A stretch of 64,000 nucleotides of DNA from a virus, in the IMG/VR virus record IMGVR_UViG_3300008954_000002, positions 64,001-128,000 of that record; one strand, written 5' to 3'. The position numbers were made by a program, and so were the translations under genes. Positions 1 through 12,455 of this stretch are shown here, piece by piece. How positions within the stretch are numbered: position 1 is the first letter of the stretch; each line of letters opens with the position of its first letter. The notes under the pieces were generated by a model that was not told the origin of the DNA, did no database searches, and saw nothing but the letters and a program-made list of their open reading frames with translations.

Positions 1-44
1 CACTGGATCCGAACTTGATACAAATAGTTCTACTTCAGAAGAGG

Positions 45-323
45 ATGTCGTCATTAATCAGTGAGCAAGAATCAGTGAGTAAAGAGCCCGAACTACTTCT
101 TATTACTTGTGCAACATGCTCACGCGCCATATATACAGCTAAGCTAGAGAGTGGTCTTCGAACTAGACCCAATACTAGCTATGGCTTATGCAATGATTGT
201 GGCCACGAGTTTTGCCTAGACTGCTTAAACACAAAAATGAGCTGCAGTGACGACAAATGGCCTGTCGCCTATAGTGGCTTTAAATGCAAGGGATGCTATG
301 AGTCAAGCGAGAACGTACCTTGA
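45..323 (+). CDS. Small Cys-rich (RING/Zn-finger-like) protein
   Basis: CxxC pairs (CATC, CNDCGHEFCLDC, CKGC); ATG at 45 after GAAGAGG. Confidence 0.6.
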   Translation: MSSLISEQESVSKEPELLLITCATCSRAIYTAKLESGLRTRPNTSYGLCNDCGHEFCLDCLNTKMSCSDDKWPVAYSGFKCKGCYESSENVP

Positions 324-528
324 GTTAGAAGAAAAACACAAAACTAAGCAAGCTGACCTACAGCTTGCTCAACTACAAGCCCACTTCTGGAAGAATGCTT
401 TCTATGAACTTACAAATAGAATAGCAAGACTAGTTCCTGAAGCTAATATCGATCCCACATCCTATCTCCTAGAATGCGAAGCACACTTAAATAAGGAGAT
501 ACAGAGTGTCAAACTTAAAAAACCCTAG
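298..528 (+). CDS. Hypothetical coiled-coil protein
   Basis: ORF MSQARTY... overlaps both neighbours; ATG 298 chosen as the likely start. Confidence 0.55.
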   Translation: MSQARTYLELEEKHKTKQADLQLAQLQAHFWKNAFYELTNRIARLVPEANIDPTSYLLECEAHLNKEIQSVKLKKP

Positions 529-1819
529 CAATTTCGTACATTTACATGTCCACTATGAAACGAGTCTCCTAGATGGCATTAATAGAATAGATACACTGCC
601 TGAACATGTTAAAAGCCTTGGCCAGACCGCCCTTTCACAGACGGACCACGGTAATGTATCCGGTTCATATCGGTTCTTTAAGGCTTGCAACAAGGCTGGC
701 ATCAAGCCAATCATTGGGATGGAGGCCTACTATTCTGTCGAGGACAGGACTGTACGCGAAGCAGACGACCTAGAGCAGGCTTACTATCATTTAATCTTGA
801 TAGCTCTTAACAATGAAGGGCTACATAACCTGTTTAAGTTATCCTCTTATGCTTACACAACTGGATTATATAGAAAACCAAGACTCGATGACGATCTATT
901 AGGACAATATAATAAAGGTATCTGCGCCACATCAGCATGCCTTGGAAGCAGGGCATCCCAACTGATTCTTAGAGGCAGAAACCAAGAGGCCGAGAAGCTA
1001 ATACACCATCATGCAGCCTTGTTCTCGAATAGGTTCTTAATTGAACTTCAGCTACATGACGACCCAGAACAACAACTCGTCAATAGAGTACTTATGGATA
1101 TTGCCAAGCGCAACGATTACCCAATGGTACTCTCTAATGATGGACACTATACTCATGAAGCAGACAAGTATCTTCATGAAGCTGCTCTTTGCATGCAAAC
1201 CCGTTCAGTACTAAGTGATGAAAAGCGGTTTACATTCGGAGAGATAGATGTTCATGTAGCACATCATGATTGGATGTGGCATCGCGCAGACATGCAGGGT
1301 ATTCCCTATGAGAGTATTACAAATACTGTTGCTGTAGCAGATATGGTTGATGCAGATTCTTACTTTGAAGACAGAATTAATCGCTATCCAAAGTTTCAAG
1401 GACTGCCTCCAGAGCTTACTTCTGACAATGCCCTTGAAAGAGTAGCTAAAGAAGGTCTCTACAATCGTTTTGGAGAGATGCCTCCAACAGAGTATAGAGA
1501 GCGTCTTGATTCAGAGCTAAAAGCTATCAAGATCATGGGCTTCTCAGATTACATGTTAATAGTTTGGGAGCTTTTAAATGGTGCGAGGAGTGAAGGTGTC
1601 TTAACCGGACCAGGCCGTGGATCGGCAGCAGGCTCCTTAGTTGCATATGCCCTGAGGATAACAGAAGTAGATCCTATTGAGTATGGGCTTATCTTCGAGC
1701 GTTTTTTAAATAAAGGTCGATCTGCAACCCCAAAACTCTTCACTAGGCAAATGCTTGACCAGATCTTAGACAAAGACGAAAACAGTACCTTTGAAGAAAT
1801 AGAAGAGGCAGTAGGATAA
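506..1819 (+). CDS. dnaE: DNA polymerase III alpha, fragment 1 (PHP domain plus N-terminal palm up to FERFLN)
   Basis: FVHLHVH..SLLDG, TDHG, GMEAY, YHLIL, SACL, NDGHY (PHP); GPGRGSAAGSLVAYAL, FERFLN; AGGAG before the GTG start. Confidence 0.95.
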   Translation: MSNLKNPSNFVHLHVHYETSLLDGINRIDTLPEHVKSLGQTALSQTDHGNVSGSYRFFKACNKAGIKPIIGMEAYYSVEDRTVREADDLEQAYYHLILIALNNEGLHNLFKLSSYAYTTGLYRKPRLDDDLLGQYNKGICATSACLGSRASQLILRGRNQEAEKLIHHHAALFSNRFLIELQLHDDPEQQLVNRVLMDIAKRNDYPMVLSNDGHYTHEADKYLHEAALCMQTRSVLSDEKRFTFGEIDVHVAHHDWMWHRADMQGIPYESITNTVAVADMVDADSYFEDRINRYPKFQGLPPELTSDNALERVAKEGLYNRFGEMPPTEYRERLDSELKAIKIMGFSDYMLIVWELLNGARSEGVLTGPGRGSAAGSLVAYALRITEVDPIEYGLIFERFLNKGRSATPKLFTRQMLDQILDKDENSTFEEIEEAVG

Positions 1820-1834
1820 CCCTACTGCCTCTTT
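1803..1834. terminator. Hairpin/intrinsic terminator between convergent genes
   Basis: Perfect 13-bp inverted repeat AAGAGGCAGTAGG / CCTACTGCCTCTT with the dnaE-1 stop codon in the loop. Confidence 0.7.
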
Positions 1835-1858
1835 AGTCCTATAATAGCTATTTCTTAA

Positions 1859-2185
1859 CTAGAATAGTATTGAATCAATTACACGCCAGATACTAACACC
1901 ATCGCTTACAAGCCATAGCCTACCGCCATTTGCTGCTATAGCCTCAGAAGCAAATACTAGTCCCGATGCTTTTACAGTACCATTTACATCAAGCTTTTGT
2001 GCTGGTGCATTAGTGCCTATACCTGCGCGATCATTGGTGCCGTCAGAATATATGTTGTAAGCATCATTGTCAGTTTCTACTCTGAAATCAAAGTCTTCAC
2101 CAGGCTCATTGAATACTTCGTTCTTGCCTCCTTTGCGGAGATACTTCCTAGAACTATGGCTACTTGATAAAAAGCTTTTAGGCGT
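1859..2185 (-). CDS. Tail-fibre-like protein without a canonical start (ACG start or +1 frameshift from the upstream ORF)
   Basis: Hand-translated 108-codon open frame containing FNEPGEDFDFRVETD...DRAGIGTNAPAQKLDVNG, a repeat typical of phage fibres. Confidence 0.6.
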   Translation of the reverse strand, partial: TPKSFLSSSHSSRKYLRKGGKNEVFNEPGEDFDFRVETDNDAYNIYSDGTNDRAGIGTNAPAQKLDVNGTVKASGLVFASEAIAANGGRLWLVSDGVSIWRVIDSILF

Positions 2186-2186
2186 T

Positions 2187-2555
2187 TTAAAACACCGTAA
2201 TTGTTAGAGCAGCAGCTGTACTTGATACTATCTCAATAGAATGTATTTCTAAACCTGTATTACCATACTCATATACAGTGTCTCCGGTCTCTTCAAAAGT
2301 GGGGAAAGCACTGCCCGCTTGCCAAGCTTGCACAGTTTCATCAGGCTTGCTCTGGTTTCTCTTTACAACTCGTGCACAGTTGTTTATTCTAAAAGTAATA
2401 GTATCAGTAGAAGCGTCTGTCATTATCTTCATATTCTGAGCGGGTCTACCTAATACATCAAACATATCGATCTTGTCCCCCGCAGCTACAGCAGTAATAG
2501 CTGTGACCCTTGCAGGACTTAAAACATTACTTGGTACCTTAGTGTAAGTTGCCAA
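2187..2555 (-). CDS. Hypothetical, probably virion-associated, protein
   Basis: TTG start with a strong AAGGAGG Shine-Dalgarno; beta-rich, Thr/Ala/Val-rich. Confidence 0.75.
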   Translation of the reverse strand: MATYTKVPSNVLSPARVTAITAVAAGDKIDMFDVLGRPAQNMKIMTDASTDTITFRINNCARVVKRNQSKPDETVQAWQAGSAFPTFEETGDTVYEYGNTGLEIHSIEIVSSTAAALTITVF

Positions 2556-2572
2556 GGCTACCTCCTTTTGCT

Positions 2573-4162
2573 ATGGAGCTAAAATTGAAAGAGAATATTA
2601 ATAATTATTATATTCCTGAACGAGTATCAGAAGTCGATAAAGACTTCCTTACTTTTGAGGAAGATATGATATCTACATCTGATGTGCAGATGATACTTGA
2701 CATATTATCTAACAAAACCCATCTAGTAGGCAAGCTACCCAACCCTCATAATAGTATACTTCTCTATCTTACTGGTATAACAAATACTTTTGATAAAACC
2801 AAGGCACGATCAGATACAATAGATGGTAGTCCCCCCGATGTGGATGTGGATCTAGCCGCATTAGAAAGAGATAAAGTTATTCAGTGGATAGTTAATCACT
2901 GGGGAAGAGAACAAGTAGCTAATATTATTACTCATGGTACTTTTAAACCTAAGTCTCTTGCAAGAGCATACTATAGAGTTACTGAAGGTGACGGTGGCGA
3001 TCTAGCTAAGATACTTAAGATGATTCCGCCAGCAAAGTATGGCAAGGAAGCAACACTTGAAGAGATAGTAGAACTACACCCAGAATTATCTGAAGAAGAA
3101 TGCTATACAGAGTTCTATACTGCTGCACAGAAACTAGAGAATATGATCTCTAATTTTGGGATACATGCAGGTGGGTTAATAATATCTGACTTTCCTATCT
3201 CTGATGTAGTACCTATATGGAAGAATAGTAAAGCTGACGCTATTACTCAGTATGACAAGAATGAAACCGAAGAGCTCGGTCTGCTGAAGTTCGACCTACT
3301 TTCTATTGATACATTATCTATTATTAAAGATACATTGGGCCTGATAAAAAGAGATCTAGATATCGATATAGAACCATATACTATTCCAGATGGTGATACA
3401 AAAGCATACAAGATGATGAATGCTGGGCTACTTACTGGTGTCTTTCAAATGGAGACCTCTGGCAACGCAAAGAGATTATTCGAAGGTATCCAGCCACAAT
3501 CTATTAAAGAGCTATCTGATATTAGCGCCCTTAACAGACCTGGACCAGCTCAAGCTGGGCTTGATCGTACGTATATGGATAACAAGAAGAGAGGGTCGCC
3601 GCCCTCAGACCTACCAGAACCAGTTGCAGAGATTCTCAAGGGTACATACTGGACGCTTGTTTACCAAGAGCAAATAATGAATCTATGCTCTAAGCTCGCA
3701 GGCTTTACACTCCAAGAGAGTGACGATATTAGACGCGCATTAGGCAAAAAGAAGAAAGAGATCTTAGACTCTTATGAAAAGCAATTTGTTGAAGGCTGTA
3801 AAGAAACTGGTCTTGAAGAACTCTATGCTAAAAATTTATGGGAAGAACTACTAGGCTTTGCTGATTACTGTTTAGCCGGCGATACTCAAGTGCAAACAAG
3901 CGAAGGCTATGTGGCCATTGAAGATCTTATTAACAGGAACGACAGTCCCACCGTCTTATCTGTTGATAATGAAGGCAATCTCATCTATCAAGATATAGTA
4001 CAAAAACACAATAATGGCATTATGGGTCTATATGAATATACATTAGAAGACAACACTAGAGTTAAATGCACAAAGAATCATAAGTTTATGACTGCTACTG
4101 GTTCTATGATTGAAATAGACTCTGCATATAGATCTGAAGTAGACTTGTTAATAAAGGAATAA
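2573..4162 (+). CDS. dnaE: DNA polymerase III alpha, fragment 2 (catalytic palm/thumb/fingers) fused to split intein N-half
   Basis: PPDVDVD, HAGGLII, GLLKFDLL, GVFQME, ALNRPGP, VYQEQIM, DDIRRALGKKK, FADY|CLAG; ATG 2573 is the probable start but has no SD. Confidence 0.95.
   Translation: MELKLKENINNYYIPERVSEVDKDFLTFEEDMISTSDVQMILDILSNKTHLVGKLPNPHNSILLYLTGITNTFDKTKARSDTIDGSPPDVDVDLAALERDKVIQWIVNHWGREQVANIITHGTFKPKSLARAYYRVTEGDGGDLAKILKMIPPAKYGKEATLEEIVELHPELSEEECYTEFYTAAQKLENMISNFGIHAGGLIISDFPISDVVPIWKNSKADAITQYDKNETEELGLLKFDLLSIDTLSIIKDTLGLIKRDLDIDIEPYTIPDGDTKAYKMMNAGLLTGVFQMETSGNAKRLFEGIQPQSIKELSDISALNRPGPAQAGLDRTYMDNKKRGSPPSDLPEPVAEILKGTYWTLVYQEQIMNLCSKLAGFTLQESDDIRRALGKKKKEILDSYEKQFVEGCKETGLEELYAKNLWEELLGFADYCLAGDTQVQTSEGYVAIEDLINRNDSPTVLSVDNEGNLIYQDIVQKHNNGIMGLYEYTLEDNTRVKCTKNHKFMTATGSMIEIDSAYRSEVDLLIKE
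3869..4159 (+). other. Split intein N-fragment (97 aa), cyanobacterial DnaE-intein-like
   Basis: CLAGDTQVQT (block A), SVDNEGNL, YEYTLED, CTKNHKFMT (block B TxxH); ends at the stop codon. Confidence 0.95.
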
Positions 4163-4164
4163 TT

Positions 4165-4488
4165 ATGCCCGGCGAAGCACAGAGATTAAGAGCTGCTCTT
4201 TCAGCTGCTTATAATAATAACCCTGCCCAAACCACTGTTAATGTAAATCCTGATAATGTAAATGTAAAACTATATGATCTTACAAGTCAGATAGATGGCG
4301 TTACTGCCACGTTTACATTCTCTCCTACTCCAAGTGCCTTAAGTCCTATTGAGATAATTCACGATGGGCTTACCCTTAGAGAAGGAGCCGCCAACGACTA
4401 CACCTTAAGTGGTGTTACATCTATAACTCTTACGTATATACCTGTTGTAGGCTCTTCTATGCAGGCTAGGTACGCAGAACAGTCATAA
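4165..4488 (+). CDS. Small virion/fibre accessory-like protein
   Basis: QIDGVTATFTF..IIHDGL..GAANDYTLSG beta domain of a kind seen in phage tail proteins; AAGGA SD. Confidence 0.65.
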   Translation: MPGEAQRLRAALSAAYNNNPAQTTVNVNPDNVNVKLYDLTSQIDGVTATFTFSPTPSALSPIEIIHDGLTLREGAANDYTLSGVTSITLTYIPVVGSSMQARYAEQS

Positions 4489-4702
4489 CTATCAATTCTC
4501 CTTGTCAAGCTATATAAAAGCATAGTCACTTGGTTTTAAGGCTTCAGATCTATAAGATGAAGTCACATCTAAGGATATGAAAACCACGCTGATTCTTGCT
4601 GACACTCACCCCAACTCTTATGGGGTACTTGTATCTAAAGATGTATTCTTCTCAAAAGAAAATAATAATACATAATTACTTAATTACAAGGAGTAAATAA
4701 TT

Positions 4703-6436
4703 ATGGCTAAAACTCAAATTCGATCTGAAGCGATTAAACTTCAGACCGCTAAAAGATTAATTGGTGGTGTAGACGGCAGCGCAGACGCTGAAGAAGTAGC
4801 AGTTGATAGTACATACTTCGATCTTGCTGCTGTCAGCGGTACAGATACTCTTCAAATTGTAGCTGAAGGCTTCCAAGACCTAGTTGGTGCAATGTTAACT
4901 GATAATACTGAAAATGGTATTGCAGTAACTTATCAAGATACAGATGGAACTATTGATTTTGATGTCAACGATCCCATAATTTCTCTAACTGGAGCTGTTG
5001 CAGGCTCAGCGACAATGACCAATCTGGGTAATGTATCTATTACCACTACTGCTACATCTGATCCAACACTAACCCTCGATGGCGACTGTAGTGGTTCGGC
5101 AACCTTTACAGACTTAGGTAATGCTACTCTCACTGTAATAGTAGCAGATAACTCTCACTACCTAGCATCTAGCTATATTTCAGATGCAACCTCTGAAGCT
5201 ACAGCAAATGTAATTGTTAAGCGAGATGCTAGTGGTGACTTTGCAGCCAATAACTTATCAGTAGCTGGTATTACAGCAAATGGTAATATTTCAGCAGTTG
5301 ACATGACCTTATCTGGCGATCTCTTGGTTAATGGTACCCAGACTTTTATGGATACAACCAGATGGCTAGTTAAAGATAAGGACATGGTCCTAGGTGTTGC
5401 TGGTGGTGAACGTCTTGCAGTAAGTCGTACAAACGCCTCTCCATCTGTTTACTCACAAACTGCTCATGGCTACTCCACTAATGATTATATCTACATATGG
5501 GGTGATAGTGGTTCTGTTTCTGATGGTGTTCATCAGGTCACTTCTATCGACGCCGATAGCTTCAGCATTGCTGTAGACACAAGCGGAGACACTGGTTCTA
5601 AAAGCTCCAACATGTCCCTTAGTGCAGTAACAGAAGCTACTGCCAACGGCGGTGGGCTCCATGTTCCTGGTACTAGCTTGCACAAGCTAATTTACAATAG
5701 CACTAATGGCTGGGACTCTACTGATGATCTTAACATTGCCACCGGAAAGGTGTTTAAAATTGCTGGAAGTGAAGTACTTTCTGCAAGCAACCTTGACAAT
5801 GCTGTCAAGGTAGAAAACGCAAACTGGGATAGTACTACGAACAAACAACTAACAGTTACAAATGGTGGTACTGGACTACAAGCTGTTACACAGGGCGATA
5901 TTTTGTATGCTAGTGCTACAAATACCATTAGTGCTGCAGGGCCAGGATCTGAATCTAATGTACAAGCTTGGGATGCTGCTTTGGATGACTTTAGTGGTCT
6001 TATCCAAACCCCAAACAAGATCCCCTACTTTGACAGTGCTACCACTATGGATATGTTTGACTTCAAAGATGAAGATAACATGTCTTCTAACTCTGATGCG
6101 GCATTAGCCTCACAACAGTCTATCAAGGCATATGCTGATAATAGTGGTGGCGCAGCCTCCCTATTTGCACATAGTACTGTTGGTGCTGGTGGCGTAGCCT
6201 CTGGGGACACAACTGCACACGGCGCAACCATGGTTGCTGGCCTAGATGCCAGTGGCATTTCTAATGTGGGTGGCGATGAAACAAAGTATATGGTCTTTCT
6301 AGACGGTATGCTACAAGACAAAGGTGCAAACGATGACTTTAGTCATGTCTATGACAACGATAACGCGCTTACCATAAAATGGCAAAAAACACTTTATGAA
6401 GGACAAACAATTGTCATTCGTGGCGCTACAGTCTAA
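4703..6436 (+). CDS. Tail fibre / virion appendage protein
   Basis: Gly/Thr/Asp/Ser-rich with repeats (ISLTGAVAGSAT/LTLDGDCSGSAT), IVKRDASG, GDLLVNGT, GGTG, TAHGY module; AAGGAG SD. Confidence 0.8.
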   Translation: MAKTQIRSEAIKLQTAKRLIGGVDGSADAEEVAVDSTYFDLAAVSGTDTLQIVAEGFQDLVGAMLTDNTENGIAVTYQDTDGTIDFDVNDPIISLTGAVAGSATMTNLGNVSITTTATSDPTLTLDGDCSGSATFTDLGNATLTVIVADNSHYLASSYISDATSEATANVIVKRDASGDFAANNLSVAGITANGNISAVDMTLSGDLLVNGTQTFMDTTRWLVKDKDMVLGVAGGERLAVSRTNASPSVYSQTAHGYSTNDYIYIWGDSGSVSDGVHQVTSIDADSFSIAVDTSGDTGSKSSNMSLSAVTEATANGGGLHVPGTSLHKLIYNSTNGWDSTDDLNIATGKVFKIAGSEVLSASNLDNAVKVENANWDSTTNKQLTVTNGGTGLQAVTQGDILYASATNTISAAGPGSESNVQAWDAALDDFSGLIQTPNKIPYFDSATTMDMFDFKDEDNMSSNSDAALASQQSIKAYADNSGGAASLFAHSTVGAGGVASGDTTAHGATMVAGLDASGISNVGGDETKYMVFLDGMLQDKGANDDFSHVYDNDNALTIKWQKTLYEGQTIVIRGATV

Positions 6437-6481
6437 ACAACACAATATATAGACATTAAGTATCTTTCTAAGGTACAACCT

Positions 6482-6513
6482 AGTGCGGGGGGAGAACCCC
6501 CCGCACTTTCTTT
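6482..6513 (+). terminator. Rho-independent terminator
   Basis: 11-bp stem AGTGCGGGGGG-AGAA-CCCCCCGCACT followed by TTCTTT. Confidence 0.85.
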
Positions 6514-6526
6514 ATATGGAGAAAAT

Positions 6527-6952
6527 ATGATTAGAAAGGTAAAACAATTCTTTTATAGAACAAGGCTAATAATAAGACTCTTGTATCGATCAAGTATATG
6601 GAAGGAAGCGAATCTTATAAGAGACAATATGGAACTAAGAACTGGCGGTGGTAACTATAAAAAAGACTACCGACGATATTGTAATATACTCCGTGGTCGT
6701 ATAAGAACTGATAATGTGGGATGGGATGACATAGTAGGAGTCACTACTCTTTCTATTGTGGGAACAGCAGCAGAAGATAACGAACTACTTAAACAGCAAG
6801 CTCTTGAACTAGCATCTATCTCTACAGACCTATATGTTATGCTTTGTGAAAGAAAAGTAGATCACTCTGGCATTCGTGAAGAGGGTGAGGAAATTAAAAG
6901 CGAACACAGCACTCTAGTATTGATAGATACCAATACGGAAACAGAGCTATAA
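6527..6952 (+). CDS. Hypothetical protein
   Basis: ORF with GGAG SD. Confidence 0.7.
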   Translation: MIRKVKQFFYRTRLIIRLLYRSSIWKEANLIRDNMELRTGGGNYKKDYRRYCNILRGRIRTDNVGWDDIVGVTTLSIVGTAAEDNELLKQQALELASISTDLYVMLCERKVDHSGIREEGEEIKSEHSTLVLIDTNTETEL

Positions 6953-7129
6953 ATGTTCCTACAGCCTAAAGATATAACCTCAGTCATATTCTTGCTTTCA
7001 TCTACAATGTGGCTAGGAACTTTTATTCTTGCTATACTATCAGACAGCTCATTCTCAGAATGTTTTAAATTGCTGAGCCTATCAATATTATGTGGATATG
7101 TTTCTTACTATTTCCACTTCAACATGTAA
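6953..7129 (+). CDS. Small two-TM membrane protein (58 aa), not in the ORF track
   Basis: MFLQPKDITSVIFLLSSTMWLGTFILAIL...LLSLSILCGYVSYYFHFNM; starts immediately after the previous stop. Confidence 0.55.
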   Translation: MFLQPKDITSVIFLLSSTMWLGTFILAILSDSSFSECFKLLSLSILCGYVSYYFHFNM

Positions 7130-7149
7130 CAAGAGGATCTATCGACTAC

Positions 7150-7506
7150 ATGTACGAGTCACAAGAAAAAGAAGATAAAGATTATATAGCTGAAGTTGAA
7201 TACTGCCTTGATGGTATTATCCCAGAAGAGGTTATGCTTGTTGATTTACTAAGAAAACTAAAAATCCAAGCAGAAGATATTGAAGACTACTCTTTATCGT
7301 TTTCACCTGGAGAAAGAACAGAAGATTATGATTACTTTGTAATCACTTGCTCAAAGACTACTGCTTCACAGAGCGACTCTCACGAGTCTTCTCCCTACGG
7401 AGTAAGCCTGTCGCTTTATCAAGATAGAGTTTCAGAACTCACTTCATCTGAGCAAGACGATACTACTTTAGGAAATCAGCTACAGCTTATATTCTCCAAC
7501 GATTAA
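7150..7506 (+). CDS. Hypothetical acidic protein
   Basis: ATG 7150 after AAGAGGA; Asp/Glu-rich. Confidence 0.65.
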   Translation: MYESQEKEDKDYIAEVEYCLDGIIPEEVMLVDLLRKLKIQAEDIEDYSLSFSPGERTEDYDYFVITCSKTTASQSDSHESSPYGVSLSLYQDRVSELTSSEQDDTTLGNQLQLIFSND

Positions 7507-7520
7507 CCGTAAGGATATAT

Positions 7521-7625
7521 ATGAAGATTAAATCCCGAGAATACCTCGGGCTTGCACCAGTGTATGATATTGGTCTGCCCGACCATCACAATTTTGTTAT
7601 TCAAGGCGGTTTAGTTGCGGCAAAT
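7521..7625 (+). other. Split intein C-fragment (35 aa)
   Basis: MKIKSREYLGLAPVYDIGLPDHHNFVIQGGLVAAN followed by Cys+1 (CFN). Confidence 0.95.
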
Positions 7626-8714
7626 TGTTTCAATGCAAGCCATTCTGTCTCGTATTCAAAGCTTACTTACATATCCGCCTATTTGAAAGCAAACTATCCG
7701 GCACAATTCTTCTGTGCACTTATGTCTGTGCGCTCCAAGTCTTTGCAACCTAAGCTCTGGGCTAATAAAGCTCCTGAGTATATGCAGGAGGCAGGCCGTC
7801 TTGGTGTAACTATACATCCACCCTCTATTAATGGTTCTGAACTTGAATTCTCAGTAAAGAGCAATGATATCTACTTTGGACTCAATGCTATTAGAGACGT
7901 TGGTGTTGCTGCAGCTAGAGCCATTATAAAAGCAAGAGGTAGCCAGCCATATAAAGACATATACGACTTTCTACATAGGGTAAACCTTAGGAAAGCGACT
8001 ACTAAGACTTTTATAAGCCTTGTAAAGGCAGGCGCTTTTGACAAGTTGGGATATAGCCGCCCATCTCTTCTTGAACATACAGCCGCTTTATATGCTTATG
8101 TAAAAGATATTGTAGAATATGAACAAAGAAAGTTAGATATAGTCGCTAGAGACGAAGAAAATAGAAAGAAAACACTTCTCTTAGATAGAAAAAAAGAACT
8201 AAACAAACTATTACGAAAAGAGAAAAGAGAACCCACCTCCAAAGAAGAGGAGTTCTTAATTAGTATCAAAGGTCTTAGACGGTTACCCGCTCTTAAACCC
8301 AAGGCTTTTCCTGAACCACCAGAAGTAAAAAGAGCTAGCACTGTTGAACTCTCATTAGAAGAGATCATGGAGCAGGCACACTACATAGGTTGCTATGTAG
8401 GAGTACATCCAGTTATGCTCATCAACAACAACGCAGAGCGTCTGTGCAACCTATATACAGGTCAACATGCTAATGTCTGCGGAGTACTTAACAATGTCAA
8501 AGAAATCACAACTAGAAAGGGAAGACAAATGGCTTTCCTAGAAATAGATGATTCCACTGACATAGCTGAGGTAGTAGTTTTCCCAGCTGTATGGCGCAAG
8601 ACTAATCAGTCTTTAGTCACGCAGGGAAAGCTAGTAGAGTTAAGAGTTAAGGTTGAGCAAGAAGAACCAACCCTTAAGCTAATGGCTACTTCAGTCAAAA
8701 TATACGAGGAATAG
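7521..8714 (+). CDS. dnaE: Split intein C-half fused to DNA polymerase III alpha fragment 3 (fingers, HhH, OB-fold)
   Basis: ...AAN|CFNASHSVSY, AYLKANYP, PPSINGS, IYFGLNAIRDVG, LVKAGAFD, TRKGRQMAFLEIDD..EVVVFP. Confidence 0.95.
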   Translation: MKIKSREYLGLAPVYDIGLPDHHNFVIQGGLVAANCFNASHSVSYSKLTYISAYLKANYPAQFFCALMSVRSKSLQPKLWANKAPEYMQEAGRLGVTIHPPSINGSELEFSVKSNDIYFGLNAIRDVGVAAARAIIKARGSQPYKDIYDFLHRVNLRKATTKTFISLVKAGAFDKLGYSRPSLLEHTAALYAYVKDIVEYEQRKLDIVARDEENRKKTLLLDRKKELNKLLRKEKREPTSKEEEFLISIKGLRRLPALKPKAFPEPPEVKRASTVELSLEEIMEQAHYIGCYVGVHPVMLINNNAERLCNLYTGQHANVCGVLNNVKEITTRKGRQMAFLEIDDSTDIAEVVVFPAVWRKTNQSLVTQGKLVELRVKVEQEEPTLKLMATSVKIYEE

Positions 8715-8718
8715 TTAT

Positions 8719-9801
8719 ATGAGTAGATGGCAACCAGAAGAAGAACACTTACTTAGGCTTTTGCTACCTACAAATAGCCATACCGAGATAGCAGTAGAAT
8801 TTGAAAGGCGCTTCCAAAAGATGCTGCCTGGATTTACCTCGCTAAGATCTTCAGAAGCAATACGCAAGAAGTGTAACCGCGAAGAACTAACAGCTGATTC
8901 TATAGTAGGATACAGCGATCCCTATAAAGATCGCTGGGAATATATTAAGAGTCTTGGAAACGAGTACAAGCTAGACGCTGAGGAACTAACAGTAGGAATA
9001 GTAGACGATGTAGATAGAAAGATACTCACACTATCTGATCTACACTTTCCGTTTGCCCTAGAGGACCATATACATAGGGCACTACTCGATCATTCAGACG
9101 CAGATGTTGTCGTGCTGAATGGCGATCTACTAGACGGATATATATTCTCTACCTTTGGCAGAGCCAAACGAGTAGCCGCACTTAAAGAGTACATAGCTGT
9201 ATTTGAACTAGTTCGTTATATTTCAGACAACTTCCCACATGTTATTATTACAAGTGGAAATCATGATGTAAGGCCTGCAAGAGCACTTAGCAGATCAGAC
9301 TTCAACAAAGAAGCTACTCAAGTACTTAGACCAGACCTATTAGCTAGAATAGCTAATGGCGAAATGCTTGATGAATATGGCGAGATAGTAGAACTAGTCG
9401 GCATGGATAATGTTACATATCAAAAATATGACTCTTGGTATGTACGAGTAGGCAAAACAATATTCTGCCATCCATCTGCATGGCGGGGTAGCTATCCTGG
9501 AGGCACTGTAACTAAACTATGCGATTACTTTACCAACAGAATGGGCAGTGAATCTTTTGACTCTATAGTCGTGGGGCACACACACCGGATCTATATGGGT
9601 ATTGTTGGCAACAAACTACTAATAGAGCAGGGTGCTATGTGCGCTCGACAGCCCTACCAGCATAAAGATGATCTCAGATTCACACATGCCATGAACGGCT
9701 ATGCAGTAATATATCAAGACGCAGACGGCAATACAGACTTCAACCTAAGCGGCCCAATATATATTGGAAGCCAATTACCACCTAAAAAGGAAATACTATA
9801 A
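8719..9801 (+). CDS. Calcineurin-like metallophosphoesterase with an N-terminal HTH-like region
   Basis: SDLH, GDLLD, GNHD, H, GHTH motifs. Confidence 0.85.
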   Translation: MSRWQPEEEHLLRLLLPTNSHTEIAVEFERRFQKMLPGFTSLRSSEAIRKKCNREELTADSIVGYSDPYKDRWEYIKSLGNEYKLDAEELTVGIVDDVDRKILTLSDLHFPFALEDHIHRALLDHSDADVVVLNGDLLDGYIFSTFGRAKRVAALKEYIAVFELVRYISDNFPHVIITSGNHDVRPARALSRSDFNKEATQVLRPDLLARIANGEMLDEYGEIVELVGMDNVTYQKYDSWYVRVGKTIFCHPSAWRGSYPGGTVTKLCDYFTNRMGSESFDSIVVGHTHRIYMGIVGNKLLIEQGAMCARQPYQHKDDLRFTHAMNGYAVIYQDADGNTDFNLSGPIYIGSQLPPKKEIL

Positions 9802-10151: not shown

Positions 10152-11181
10152 TAAATGGTCATTTATACAACACATAACAGACTACTTAGGGCGAGATAAA
10201 CTAGGAAATCAAAAGGCCCCCACTCTGTGGCCCTCTGAAGCAACAGCTATTGTTGCCAATGCACATGGTGAACAAGTTGCTGAGGGGAAATGTAGGCGAG
10301 CCACTTACTTCAGGTATATGTGTGATTGGTACTATTTTAATAGTGACGCATATGCACATTATCAACCTCTCGTAGAGCAGATCAAAGAGAAAAGCATTCC
10401 ACATGACGGTTACGTTCAGTGGATCTTCAAGCAGGGGAACCTATATGAAGAATCATGCTTGCAAGACTCTAAAGAATCAGGTATCTATATTGCCGATCAG
10501 ACACAAGTATATGTGCCTAGCCACAATGTCTCAGGCAAAGTAGATATCGTTGCTCTTAATCCAGTTACTAAGAACTATTCCATTGTTGAACTTAAATCCG
10601 TTTATGGATTCAATGGCAATAGTGTACTTGGTACTCCAGGTGAGAGAAAGAAAGGTCAGCTGGGTACACCACGCACAGGCCACCTTATGCAAATAGGCAT
10701 TTACCAATGGTGGTATGCTGGACAAGACGAAAGATTTGAAGAGGGTAGGCTAGTTTATGGTGCACGAGATACAGGCAGGTTTGCTGAATACCTAATTCAA
10801 ATACGTCCATACGATACAGATACTGGTGTACAAAATTTTATCTCTTACACAGGTAACTGTCCAAACAAAACAGAAGAAGTTGTAACAGACATTAGTATAG
10901 AGAACATACTTGAACAATATGCTCTCATTCTAAGATCCCTAGATTCAGGCGAAATACCCGAAAGAGATTATAGCTTGCAATACTCTGACGAACACATCTC
11001 AAAGCTTTATGATAGAAAAGAGCTACCTAAGGCCGACATGGAAAGGCATGGGAAGAGAACTCAGCAGCTAGCAGAGGGTAAGCGCCCTATTAAAGCTGTA
11101 GAGCGCGGCGACTGGCAATGCCGCTTATGCAAGTATAAAGACATCTGTTACGACGATAAAAAGAACCCAATAAACATATAG
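10144..11181 (+). CDS. Cas4-like PD-(D/E)XK exonuclease
   Basis: N-terminal C, GKVD, ELKS, QIGIY, C-terminal WQCRLCKYKDIC (Fe-S type). Confidence 0.8.
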   Translation: MSSKWSFIQHITDYLGRDKLGNQKAPTLWPSEATAIVANAHGEQVAEGKCRRATYFRYMCDWYYFNSDAYAHYQPLVEQIKEKSIPHDGYVQWIFKQGNLYEESCLQDSKESGIYIADQTQVYVPSHNVSGKVDIVALNPVTKNYSIVELKSVYGFNGNSVLGTPGERKKGQLGTPRTGHLMQIGIYQWWYAGQDERFEEGRLVYGARDTGRFAEYLIQIRPYDTDTGVQNFISYTGNCPNKTEEVVTDISIENILEQYALILRSLDSGEIPERDYSLQYSDEHISKLYDRKELPKADMERHGKRTQQLAEGKRPIKAVERGDWQCRLCKYKDICYDDKKNPINI

Positions 11182-11187
11182 GAACTT

Positions 11188-11442
11188 ATGGATACCTACT
11201 TCCTTGTGAAGATATGGGTAGACAATGAGCTAACAGTATATGGACCGTATCTAGAGTTGGATGATGCGGTCACTATGCTTATAGACCATTTGCCTCCCAT
11301 TGCATTGGCTCAAATACTCAAAAAGAAAGTAGCTAGGTACCTGGCCGAAGTGCATGAGTGCATACTTAATGCAGATGGAAGCTGGGATACTATAGCTATT
11401 AGAATCAAGGAAAACGAATGCGAACGCAGACCCCATATGTAA
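11188..11442 (+). CDS. Hypothetical protein
   Basis: ORF with AGGA SD. Confidence 0.65.
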   Translation: MDTYFLVKIWVDNELTVYGPYLELDDAVTMLIDHLPPIALAQILKKKVARYLAEVHECILNADGSWDTIAIRIKENECERRPHM

Positions 11443-12455
11443 ATCCATTACTTTCAGAAAACCTATCCGTTAACGATGTTCTATTGCTCCCAGCCAAAGG
11501 AATCCTTACCTCAAGAGCAGATGCAAAACTAAAGCCATTCATTTACAGCGCTCCTATGGACACTGTGACAGGCTATGGAATGTCTAACGCTATGGTAGCT
11601 CTTGGAGAGCATCCTGTAGTCTGTCGCTTCCTACATGAAGACTGGAACAGAACCTTTACCGAGCACATGGAAAACCCTAATGTTTTCTTTGCAATAGGTG
11701 CTAAAGAAGCCGACTTGGAGGACTTCCTATATAGACTCAATAACACTAAGCCTGCATATGGCTCAGTATCGGTATCCATAGACATAGCTCATGGGGACTC
11801 CGTAATGGCTCACAGTGCAGCTACATTGCTCTCTAAAAGCCCCTACATAGGGAACATTATGTCTGGCTCTCTCTGTACCCCTGAGGGGGCAGAGAGAGCT
11901 TGGGCTGCTGGGTGCACACACCTAAGAGTGGGTGTAGGCCCTGGAGCAGCTTGCACAACTAGGCTAATGACGGGCTGTGGCTATCCGCAGCTAAAAGCTA
12001 TCTATATTATAGCCAAATATCTAGAAGCAAAAGAGATAGATATAGAGATTATTGCTGATGGAGGAATCAAGTATTCTGGCGATGCCGTGAAGTATCTTGC
12101 AGCAGGGGCAGACGCCATTATGTTGGGCAGTCGATTTAGCTCTTGTATCGAAAGCGCTGGCTGGTTTGTAAACAAAGACAACAGAAGAGAAAAGAAATTT
12201 AGAGGACAAGCGTCCAGAGAATTTCAAATCTCACAGTATGCAAAAGATCCTGCTTGTCCCGAAGGAGCGTCTGGCCCCACCATTACTCCTAAAGGATTTT
12301 GCAAGAACATAGTGGAAGAGTTTAGAGGTGGTGTAGCGTCGGCTATCAGTTACCTTGGCCTTAGCTCAATAGAAGAGCTAAATCCTACAAATGTATACTT
12401 TGTAAAGATTACGCAAGCAGCCTATATAGAAGGCACGCCTCATGGTACTAAATAA
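11418..12455 (+). CDS. IMP dehydrogenase/GMP reductase family protein (no CBS domains)
   Basis: SAPMDTVT, IDIAHG, RVGVGPGAACTTR, IADGGI, MLGS, FRGQAS, PEG. Confidence 0.9.
   Translation: MRTQTPYVNPLLSENLSVNDVLLLPAKGILTSRADAKLKPFIYSAPMDTVTGYGMSNAMVALGEHPVVCRFLHEDWNRTFTEHMENPNVFFAIGAKEADLEDFLYRLNNTKPAYGSVSVSIDIAHGDSVMAHSAATLLSKSPYIGNIMSGSLCTPEGAERAWAAGCTHLRVGVGPGAACTTRLMTGCGYPQLKAIYIIAKYLEAKEIDIEIIADGGIKYSGDAVKYLAAGADAIMLGSRFSSCIESAGWFVNKDNRREKKFRGQASREFQISQYAKDPACPEGASGPTITPKGFCKNIVEEFRGGVASAISYLGLSSIEELNPTNVYFVKITQAAYIEGTPHGTK

Follow-up and report, generated by a model that had tools for sequence, protein, structure and literature searches.

A predicted split DnaE intein at the cyanobacterial insertion point in an uncultured phage's gene for DNA polymerase

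We analyzed a 64,000-nucleotide stretch of viral DNA (here called the window), bases 64001 to 128000 of IMG/VR record IMGVR_UViG_3300008954_000002, a 161,098-bp virus genome that has direct terminal repeats and is rated complete. In this window, the gene for DNA polymerase III alpha, dnaE, is spread over three open reading frames (ORFs) of the same strand: A (506 to 1819), B (2549 to 4162), and C (7521 to 8714). ORF B ends in the N-terminal half of an intein (IntN), and ORF C begins with the C-terminal half (IntC). The two halves very probably form a naturally split mini-intein of the DnaE insertion-point-a family, that of the Npu and Ssp inteins, and this intein is predicted to trans-splice the only DNA polymerase of the phage. 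The original prediction, made from the DNA sequence alone, had placed a cyanobacterial-type split intein in a phage at this position. The terminal repeats of the record bear out the phage location, and the halves (97 and 35 amino acids), their coordinates, and the FADY/CFN site (the slash marks the point of insertion) proved exact, with PDB matches at E = 2e-18 and 7e-7, respectively.

The intein halves and the polymerase

IntN (CLAGDT...TKNHKFMT...DLLIKE) directly follows the ...LGFADY end of the piece B extein, and positions 3869 to 7625 run exactly from its Cys1 to Asn35 of IntC, so that the junction reads FADY/C...N/CFN. The residue before the terminal Asn35 is Ala, not His. Among PDB entries, IntN matched the Npu DnaE IntN chains 4lx3 and 4qfq over residues 1 to 94 (E = 2e-18), and IntC matched the Ssp and Npu DnaE IntC chains (E = 7.5e-8 to 8e-7). 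The similarity of both halves far exceeds chance. The Pfam profile Intein_splicing also matched IntN, below its threshold. When the halves are aligned to Npu and Ssp, the whole catalytic set is present (C1, T68, H71, N35, and the extein residue C+1). As had been claimed, the site, the split point, the fragment sizes, and the missing penultimate His agree with the Npu and Ssp DnaE inteins.

The catalytic residues are also kept across the relatives of the window. Among 121 phage IntNs, which have a median pairwise identity of 38%, C1, T68, and H71 show no variation, and an IntC alignment (A5) of 12 loci has V14, D16, I17, H23, F25, and N35, together with C36, F37, and N38 of the extein, as invariant positions. 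That the splicing residues do not vary despite this divergence points to selection on the splicing chemistry. Splicing would begin with separately translated B-IntN (about 530 amino acids) and IntC-piece C (397 amino acids) polypeptides. The acidic IntN, with a net charge of -8, and IntC would zip into a HINT fold; a thioester at Cys1 would then be attacked by Cys+1, and cyclization of Asn35 would follow. The ligated B-C polypeptide would have about 795 to 802 amino acids, and piece A would be added noncovalently. The B extein (440 amino acids) and the C extein (362 amino acids) add up to 802 amino acids, and the fused, intein-less B-C proteins of 11 relatives have 800 to 832.

A complex prediction for IntN with IntC scored 0.74, while the best of three controls scored 0.00. 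Of the solved complexes, 58 of 80 attained this mark, as did 2 of 110 mismatched pairs. Between runs, 93% or more of the contacts were shared, and the pLDDT of the partner did not fall below 72. Because Npu and Ssp complexes have already been solved, the pass may reflect memory, and it shows likeness rather than binding. The complex model bears on association alone, which would also suit a high-affinity dimerization module that holds B and C together without a peptide bond. Piece A evidently works without covalent joining, so the polymerase tolerates noncovalent assembly. However, the residues that serve chemistry only (Cys1, T-x-x-H, the terminal Asn, and Cys+1) are invariant among copies that are about 38% identical, and we therefore regard dimerization without splicing as improbable.

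The two breaks between the three DnaE pieces differ in kind. Piece A matched the Pfam PHP domain (E = 2.3e-42) and positions 2 to 102 of DNA_pol3_alpha, and it is 57 to 71% identical to piece A of relatives. Its C terminus reads ...GSLVAYALRITEVDP...FERFLNKGRSATP and is followed by an acidic tail. Piece B matched DNA_pol3_alpha positions 100 to 259 and DNA_pol3_finger (E = 1.5e-42). Its conserved leader of about 93 amino acids before PPDVDVD contains a degenerate second copy (NPHNSILLY.TG.T...KARSDT) of the end of piece A, and leader residues N65, N68, S69, L72, F81, and R87 are invariant across 23 relatives. Piece C matched HHH_6 (E = 8e-27) and an OB fold, and the B-C break thus falls between the DNA_pol3_finger domain and HHH_6 plus the OB fold. 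Unlike the B-C break, the A-B break has no intein.

In the complete genome, we found no family A or family B polymerase, and the DNA_pol3_alpha matches were pieces A and B alone. Since no second polymerase was found, the broken dnaE is the only detectable replicase of the phage. Among GenBank phages, megablast of positions 500 to 8800 gave no match, tblastn with pieces B and C gave nothing above 36.7% identity, and tblastn with the 577-amino-acid protein encoded between the intein halves gave no match. These empty or weak searches indicate that the phage has no cultured close relative within that collection.

Table 1. Features of the dnaE region, in window coordinates
Feature	Position	Strand	Description
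DnaE piece A	506..1819	+	PHP and first ~100 positions of palm (NTPase) domain; without intein
122-amino-acid ORF in A-B gap	2187..2555	-	Position kept in relatives
DnaE piece B extein	2549..3868	+	~93-amino-acid conserved leader, palm from PPDVDVD, fingers; ends in LGFADY
IntN, 97 amino acids	3869..4159	+	Cys1; block B T68-x-x-H71; stop codon 4160-4162
First gap ORF, 107 amino acids	4165..4488	+	Begins 2 nt past ORF B stop; kept in gaps of relatives
577-amino-acid mosaic tail-fiber-like protein (putative)	4703..6436	+	Variable core of gap
Intrinsic-terminator-like hairpin	6482..6507	+	11-bp stem, 9 GC pairs, T-rich tail; after fiber-like gene
Orphan ORF, 141 amino acids (107 from internal Met of public gene call)	6527..6952	+	
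Orphan ORF	6953..7129	+	
Acidic last gap ORF, 138 amino acids (118 from internal Met)	7090..7506	+	
IntC, 35 amino acids	7521..7625	+	MKIKSREYLG...VYDIG (block F)...HNF...VAAN (block G); Asn35 terminal, then CFNASHS
DnaE piece C extein	7626..8714	+	Cys+1-Phe-Asn, then HhH and OB domains; starts CFNASHS

The phage clade and the gap between the halves

Comparison with metagenomes shows that the locus is not a singular case. Piece B has at least 800 metagenomic homologues, and at least 109 of the best 120 end in an IntN at GFADY/C; hundreds of phages share the layout. The window belongs to a very large clade of phages that are uncultured and for the most part marine; its relatives come from Tara Oceans assemblies and from public metagenomes, those of JGI among them. 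Independent contigs from JGI, Logan, ENA/Tara, and IMG/VR repeat one gene order (RecA, A, B-IntN, gap, IntC-C, then Metallophos and onward), which rules out misassembly. The opposite-strand ORF in the A-B gap has counterparts of 31 to 42% identity (tblastn) at the same position in loci L030 to L033 and L041, and it matched no Pfam or PHROG family.

Eleven relatives carry a fused, intein-less B-C gene with the junction GFADY-CFNK[A/S]HS, and Cys+1 is kept in all 11. These alleles (P0015, P0021, P0034, P0037, and others; loci L041, L123, L127, and L134) have the same neighbor genes and no gap, and their piece B exteins are 63 to 69% identical to that of the window. On the extein tree, they form two groups beside the lineage of the window, which implies at least two gains or losses. 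The Cys is also kept in a distant intein-less relative, L147 (FADYCFNLSHS), and the site of L140 reads canonical HYGFNKSHS. The retained Cys could be either a footprint of intein loss or a preexisting landing pad. One of the intein-less loci, L041, has a 9-kb block of large opposite-strand ORFs inside its A-B break.

Several relatives carry further interruptions of DnaE. In L140, a group I intron (11204 to 11532; RF00028, 62.2 bits, E = 3.7e-15, above threshold) lies at RRAMG/KKK. In L143, L144, and L146 (about 10970 to 12230), an extra interruption of about 1.3 kb lies in piece B upstream of IntN, just past the SAISAIN segment at the ALNRPGP motif. Locus L148, from a 186-kb contig of a related large phage, has three inteins besides the site-a split intein: one in a ribonucleotide reductase gene, one in piece B (LAGLIDADG_3), and one in piece C (Intein_splicing E = 2.3e-9; HNH matches there are weak). 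Its gap encodes a 915-amino-acid CBM_4_9 protein.

Inteins normally carry a homing endonuclease at the position that corresponds to the gap between the halves. In the window, this gap (4163 to 7520, from the stop of ORF B to the start of ORF C) is 3.36 kb long and holds five ORFs, all on the same strand, among which no nuclease family was found in Pfam or PHROG, even at E = 10. The earlier description of the gap as fiber-like and orphan genes without a recognizable homing endonuclease thus stands, with the fiber assignment made by homology. Across 13 distinct related loci, the gap measures 2.2 to 9.4 kb, and 91 of 91 gap ORFs of at least 70 amino acids are on the plus strand. Pfam found Collagen (five ORFs), Peptidase_M15 (three), and Laminin_G_3 (one) among these 91 and nothing else, with no endonuclease family; the PHROG tail-fiber matches come from the collagen-bearing members. 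Two further loci had no IntC within 10 kb downstream.

The edges of the gap are more conserved than its center. With tblastn at E = 1e-3, no gap ORF appeared conserved, but phmmer recovered the first and the last. The first matched ORFs near IntN in L122 (1e-10), L141 (3.8e-7), and L034 and L130 (about 7e-4), and it belongs to a 14-member cluster that also holds large fiber-like ORFs; it is probably part of a fiber module. The last matched L122:15216-15530 (8.4e-16) and L030:15260-15649 (2.1e-5), both directly before IntC. Between these edges, the 577-amino-acid protein has 722 homologues that share 10 to 41% of its length at 38 to 73% identity, and several of the best 120 of these 722 carry Peptidase_S74, Mtd_N, phage-tail-repeat (PTR), Peptidase_G2, or T4 gp36 domains. 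It matched phrog_30390 at residues 25 to 118, had no Pfam domain, and had no homologue in the gaps of relatives. This mosaic pattern is typical of tail fibers, and homology supports a tail-fiber-like assignment. We infer that the gap of the clade would act as a same-strand slot that has conserved edge genes and a fast-changing tail-fiber-like core and that lacks a recognizable endonuclease. A search of window positions 1 to 9000 against Rfam (E = 0.1) gave no match and so revealed no intron remnants there.

Some of these observations speak against trans-splicing of the polymerase or against our view of the gap. The strong hairpin after the fiber-like gene lies between the two halves and is the top terminator-like site in positions 1700 to 8900, where 18 such sites were found and 4.3 were expected; piece C is therefore not simply cotranscribed with piece B, and coexpression of the two is not guaranteed. 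The net charge of IntC is 0, and its first 12 residues alone carry +2. Npu IntC is clearly basic, and the IntC of the window may show less of the electrostatic steering that operates in Npu. The tail-fiber label draws on mosaic homology and on the collagen and lectin domains of relatives, and it should be read as putative.

Lastly, the orphan ORFs at 6527 to 6952 and 7090 to 7506, for which the ESM Atlas models have low confidence (pLDDT of 0.38 and 0.45), might encode a novel nuclease. One of them would then be a cryptic homing endonuclease and the locus an ordinary fractured gene. Both ORFs are unannotated, the second is kept directly upstream of IntC in two relatives, which is a plausible endonuclease position, and new endonuclease families have been discovered in just this way (PMC2677866). 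However, neither ORF matched a Pfam or PHROG family even at E = 10 or had an Atlas neighbor, and the first had no homologue in other gaps. The motifs of HNH, GIY-YIG, and LAGLIDADG nucleases were absent by eye from both, and the second is strongly acidic. A search of the whole genome for the LAGLIDADG endonuclease of relatives, described below, gave no match (best E = 5.6). We consider a hidden endonuclease in the gap unlikely and retain the reading of a gap without one.

Elsewhere in the genome, further genes are associated with inteins. Upstream of the window, a 1,393-amino-acid ORF (G000:C1:55496-59872) has two Intein_splicing matches, one of them above the Pfam cutoff (E = 2.4e-13), and C1:63495-63587 encodes a C-terminal intein piece that is part of a split RecA. 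Inteins are abundant in the phage genome. An IMPDH/GMP-reductase-like gene, syntenic in relatives, lies at window positions 11418 to 12455, a few genes downstream of DnaE-C, and the GOS IMPDH fractured-gene loci of Dassa et al. (2009) may stem from related phages.

A LAGLIDADG endonuclease in related breaks

In the phage-like contigs L149 and L154, a free-standing HTH-LAGLIDADG gene lies exactly between the IntN and IntC genes. The order in L149 (7 kb) is UDG, B-IntN, endonuclease, IntC-C, and Metallophos; L154 comes from a 135-kb contig. In both, the C half is followed by the Metallophos neighbor, as in the clade of the window. The same IntN-endonuclease-IntC arrangement occurs in the cyanobacterial chromosomes of Laspinema olomoucense D3b (L153) and Microcoleus (L155), in which dnaE-N and dnaE-C are neighbors and have an overlapping LAGLIDADG gene in between. 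Such a fractured-gene layout differs from that of Synechocystis and Nostoc, for which separate loci have been described. All four loci share the site and the intein family with the window, but their breaks contain the LAGLIDADG gene, which is absent from the genome of the window.

The LAGLIDADG genes in these breaks encode 259 to 274 amino acids and matched Pfam LAGLIDADG_3 (E = 1.9e-10 for L149, above the family cutoff, and 5.7e-11 for L153). The Laspinema and L149 endonucleases share 40% identity along their entire length (E = 9e-55), and the family has 270 homologues, including proteins named from Ancylothrix, Gloeocapsopsis, and Aerosakkonema. The presence of a homologous endonuclease in both ties the phage and cyanobacterial elements together. 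The inteins give a similar picture: the L149 and L154 IntNs are 61 to 67% identical to the Microcoleus IntN (67% for L154), and in a focused tree these two phage-like copies are inseparable from the cyanobacterial inteins. The exteins of L154 and Microcoleus share 42% identity in the N-terminal part and 32% in the C-terminal part, and the L154 extein is 30% identical to that of the window.

Members of the endonuclease family also occur where intein halves are missing. At the intein site of L142 (11140 to 12080; GFANYG/FNK...), there are no halves but a 231-amino-acid LAGLIDADG ORF and a group-I-intron-like RNA (RF00028, 27.5 bits, below the gathering score of 50, E = 1.3e-4). The L142 homologue is 36% identical to the Laspinema protein (E = 2e-17). 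Family homologues were also found in the intein-free A-B gap of L148 (9420 to 10000, tblastn E = 3.6e-12; the ORF matched Pfam LAGLIDADG_3 at E = 1.1e-11) and of L142 (8993 to 9736, 3.6e-17), which suggests that the A-B break is likewise associated with an endonuclease.

The lack of an endonuclease in the gap is a less distinctive feature of the locus than had been claimed. Cyanobacterial halves normally have no endonuclease nearby: at 80 mostly Nostocales loci, neither DnaE-C nor the shared LAGLIDADG endonuclease was found within 6 kb of IntN. In addition, endonuclease-bearing relatives occur in both phages and cyanobacteria. The simplest reading of these results is that one endonuclease family targets DnaE site a and ferried the split intein between cyanobacteria and phages, and that the clade of the window is an older or faster-evolving offshoot that lost the endonuclease.

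Relation to cyanobacterial inteins and meaning

An exhaustive IntN search returned 421 proteins at E = 1e-3 or better, which fall by their flanks into four groups: cyanobacterial FAEY/CLSY... (including Okeania, Phormidium, Laspinema, and Stigonema), phage GFADY/CL..., and the DnaE sites YGFNK/C and PDID/C. Because alignment A1 was too diverse, the search of cellular genomes used the narrower IntN alignment A2. The best 80 loci, 39 to 46% identical to the IntN of the window, were named as cyanobacteria except for one 5.8-kb contig of a metagenome-assembled genome labeled Acetobacteraceae. In the alignment with cyanobacterial IntNs, the IntN of the window is 38 to 40% identical to them, which makes it about as distant from them as from most other phage copies, and phage copies have a median pairwise identity of 38% compared with 61% for cyanobacterial copies. 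The exteins of the window are 31 to 38% identical to cyanobacterial DnaE, and piece B scored about equally against the DnaE proteins of Mycobacterium, Thermus, and E. coli and those of cyanobacteria. From this it follows that the histories of intein and polymerase differ.

The IntN tree, built from 64 rows and 102 columns, places every cyanobacterial intein in a single 15-row clade (support 95/92) that also holds five phage-borne copies (P0146, P0123, P0055, P0174, and P0159). The window groups with its nearest relative, P0002 (support 97/98), outside this clade, in the unresolved base of the tree. Forcing the window into the cyanobacterial group worsened the tree by 42.5 log-likelihood units (lnL) and was borderline rejected by the approximately unbiased (AU) test (P = 0.046). 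The best tree drew the cyanobacterial inteins as nested within the phage inteins; we do not claim this nesting, since a single clade of all phage-borne inteins was not rejected (AU P = 0.089). These trees have about 100 columns and a root that hangs on inteins from other DnaE sites, so that the direction of transfer is not readable from them. By the refuting condition set in the original prediction, the term cyanobacterial-type fits the family and the site but not the clade: by a borderline test, the intein of the window appears to be a divergent phage lineage. IntN lay outside the cyanobacterial clade of the tree, and the exteins were no closer to cyanobacteria than to other phyla.

These comparisons bear on whether the phage captured a cyanobacterial split dnaE recently, extein and intein together, as in gene theft by cyanophages. 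The near-exclusive cyanobacterial naming of the best cellular loci would fit such an event, and in the other phage-like lineage (L149 and L154) the exteins are indeed closer to cyanobacteria (37 to 42%), as are the IntNs. Against it stand the divergence of the exteins and IntN of the window just described, the position of IntN in the tree, and the three-piece layout common to hundreds of phages. The genome also has no psbA, although its absence is no proof against a cyanobacterial host. We therefore regard recent capture as highly improbable for the window and keep to the divergent phage lineage. Nothing pointed to the cyanobacterial host that had been considered earlier; the large terminase is 25 to 29% identical to those of phages of Moorella, Acinetobacter, and Bacillus (0305phi8-36-type). 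That the halves might cross-splice with those of a host's DnaE is pure speculation.

The site-a intein also occurs in an unsplit form. Two cyanobacterial RefSeq proteins, P0283 (Laspinema sp. D2a, 1,785 amino acids) and P0275 (Oscillatoria sp. HE19RPO, 1,787 amino acids), have it as a contiguous cis mini-intein, with IntN and IntC in frame and without an endonuclease, and in the sister strain D3b the same site has the N half, the LAGLIDADG gene, and the C half. Insertion point a has been described as the most common, widespread in Cyanobacteria, with every known intein there split (Novikova et al. 2016), and the two cis mini-inteins contradict the last of these statements.

Three known systems resemble the locus in part. 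The cyanobacterial split DnaE intein (Ssp PCC6803 and Npu; PMC4760082, PMC2677866; PDB 4lx3, 4qfq, and 1zde) shares insertion point a of PolIII-alpha (Y/CFN), the split point, halves of about 100 and 35 amino acids, the catalytic residues, and a penultimate Ala or Ser instead of His. The site reads LGFADY/C...N/CFNASHS in the window and FAEY/C...N/CFNKSHS in cyanobacteria. In the classical cyanobacterial case, the dnaE halves are at separate loci (PMC2677866), whereas those of the window are 3.4 kb apart on one strand; the DnaE of the window is also phage-borne and has a second, intein-free break. Dassa et al. (2009; PMC2677866) described the fractured phage-like loci gp41-1, NrdJ-1, IMPDH-1, and DnaE-1 to DnaE-3. 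In these, as in the window, a split intein breaks an essential replication gene of a phage, the halves are neighbors on the same strand, and other genes lie in the break. Their breaks hold a free-standing GIY-YIG or Vsr-like endonuclease, and their DnaE sites are other than the cyanobacterial one, whereas the window has the cyanobacterial site and fiber-like cargo without a recognizable endonuclease. The jumbo phages of group 2.2 (Iyer et al. 2021; PMC7824862) encode Pol III alpha as separate proteins that must come together without an intein, which resembles the A-B break. Their proteins are minimal catalytic modules found alongside a family B polymerase, whereas the window has a full PHP-palm-fingers-HhH-OB DnaE, as its sole polymerase, with a split intein at the second break.

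Taken together, the results permit a broader account, which we put forward tentatively and consider less likely to be right than wrong. Phage and cyanobacterial dnaE would share one mobile element, a site-a split intein with its HTH-LAGLIDADG endonuclease, and the diverse phage pool would be the source of the cyanobacterial split. The large marine clade would have lost the endonuclease, and its break would have become a protected slot for tail-fiber (host-range) cassettes, which could be exchanged by recombination in the conserved polymerase flanks. Whichever way the transfer went, the shared endonuclease adds weight to the earlier suggestion that the locus may bear on how the cyanobacterial split dnaE arose.

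Among natural split inteins, that of cyanobacterial DnaE was the founding example, and it has become the mainstay of protein ligation. In the published view, insertion point a is essentially cyanobacterial and the split goes back to one ancient, irreversible break (PMC2677866, PMC4760082). A literature search of incomplete coverage turned up no description of a site-a DnaE split intein from phages and none of a LAGLIDADG gene between cyanobacterial dnaE halves; the LAGLIDADG gene that is shared between the split halves in phage-like contigs and in Laspinema and Microcoleus is new here. The value of the finding lies in the clade as a whole rather than in the single window. Its split inteins are allelic, presumably active, and far more diverse, and they form a natural library from which orthogonal or faster ligation tools could be drawn. 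The natural intermediates of the element that the clade offers, with an endonuclease in the break, with none, cis-fused, or intein-less with the Cys kept, make the origin and mobility of the element testable. Finally, an essential gene that is broken by a split intein and has putative host-range genes in the break would be a different use of a fractured gene.

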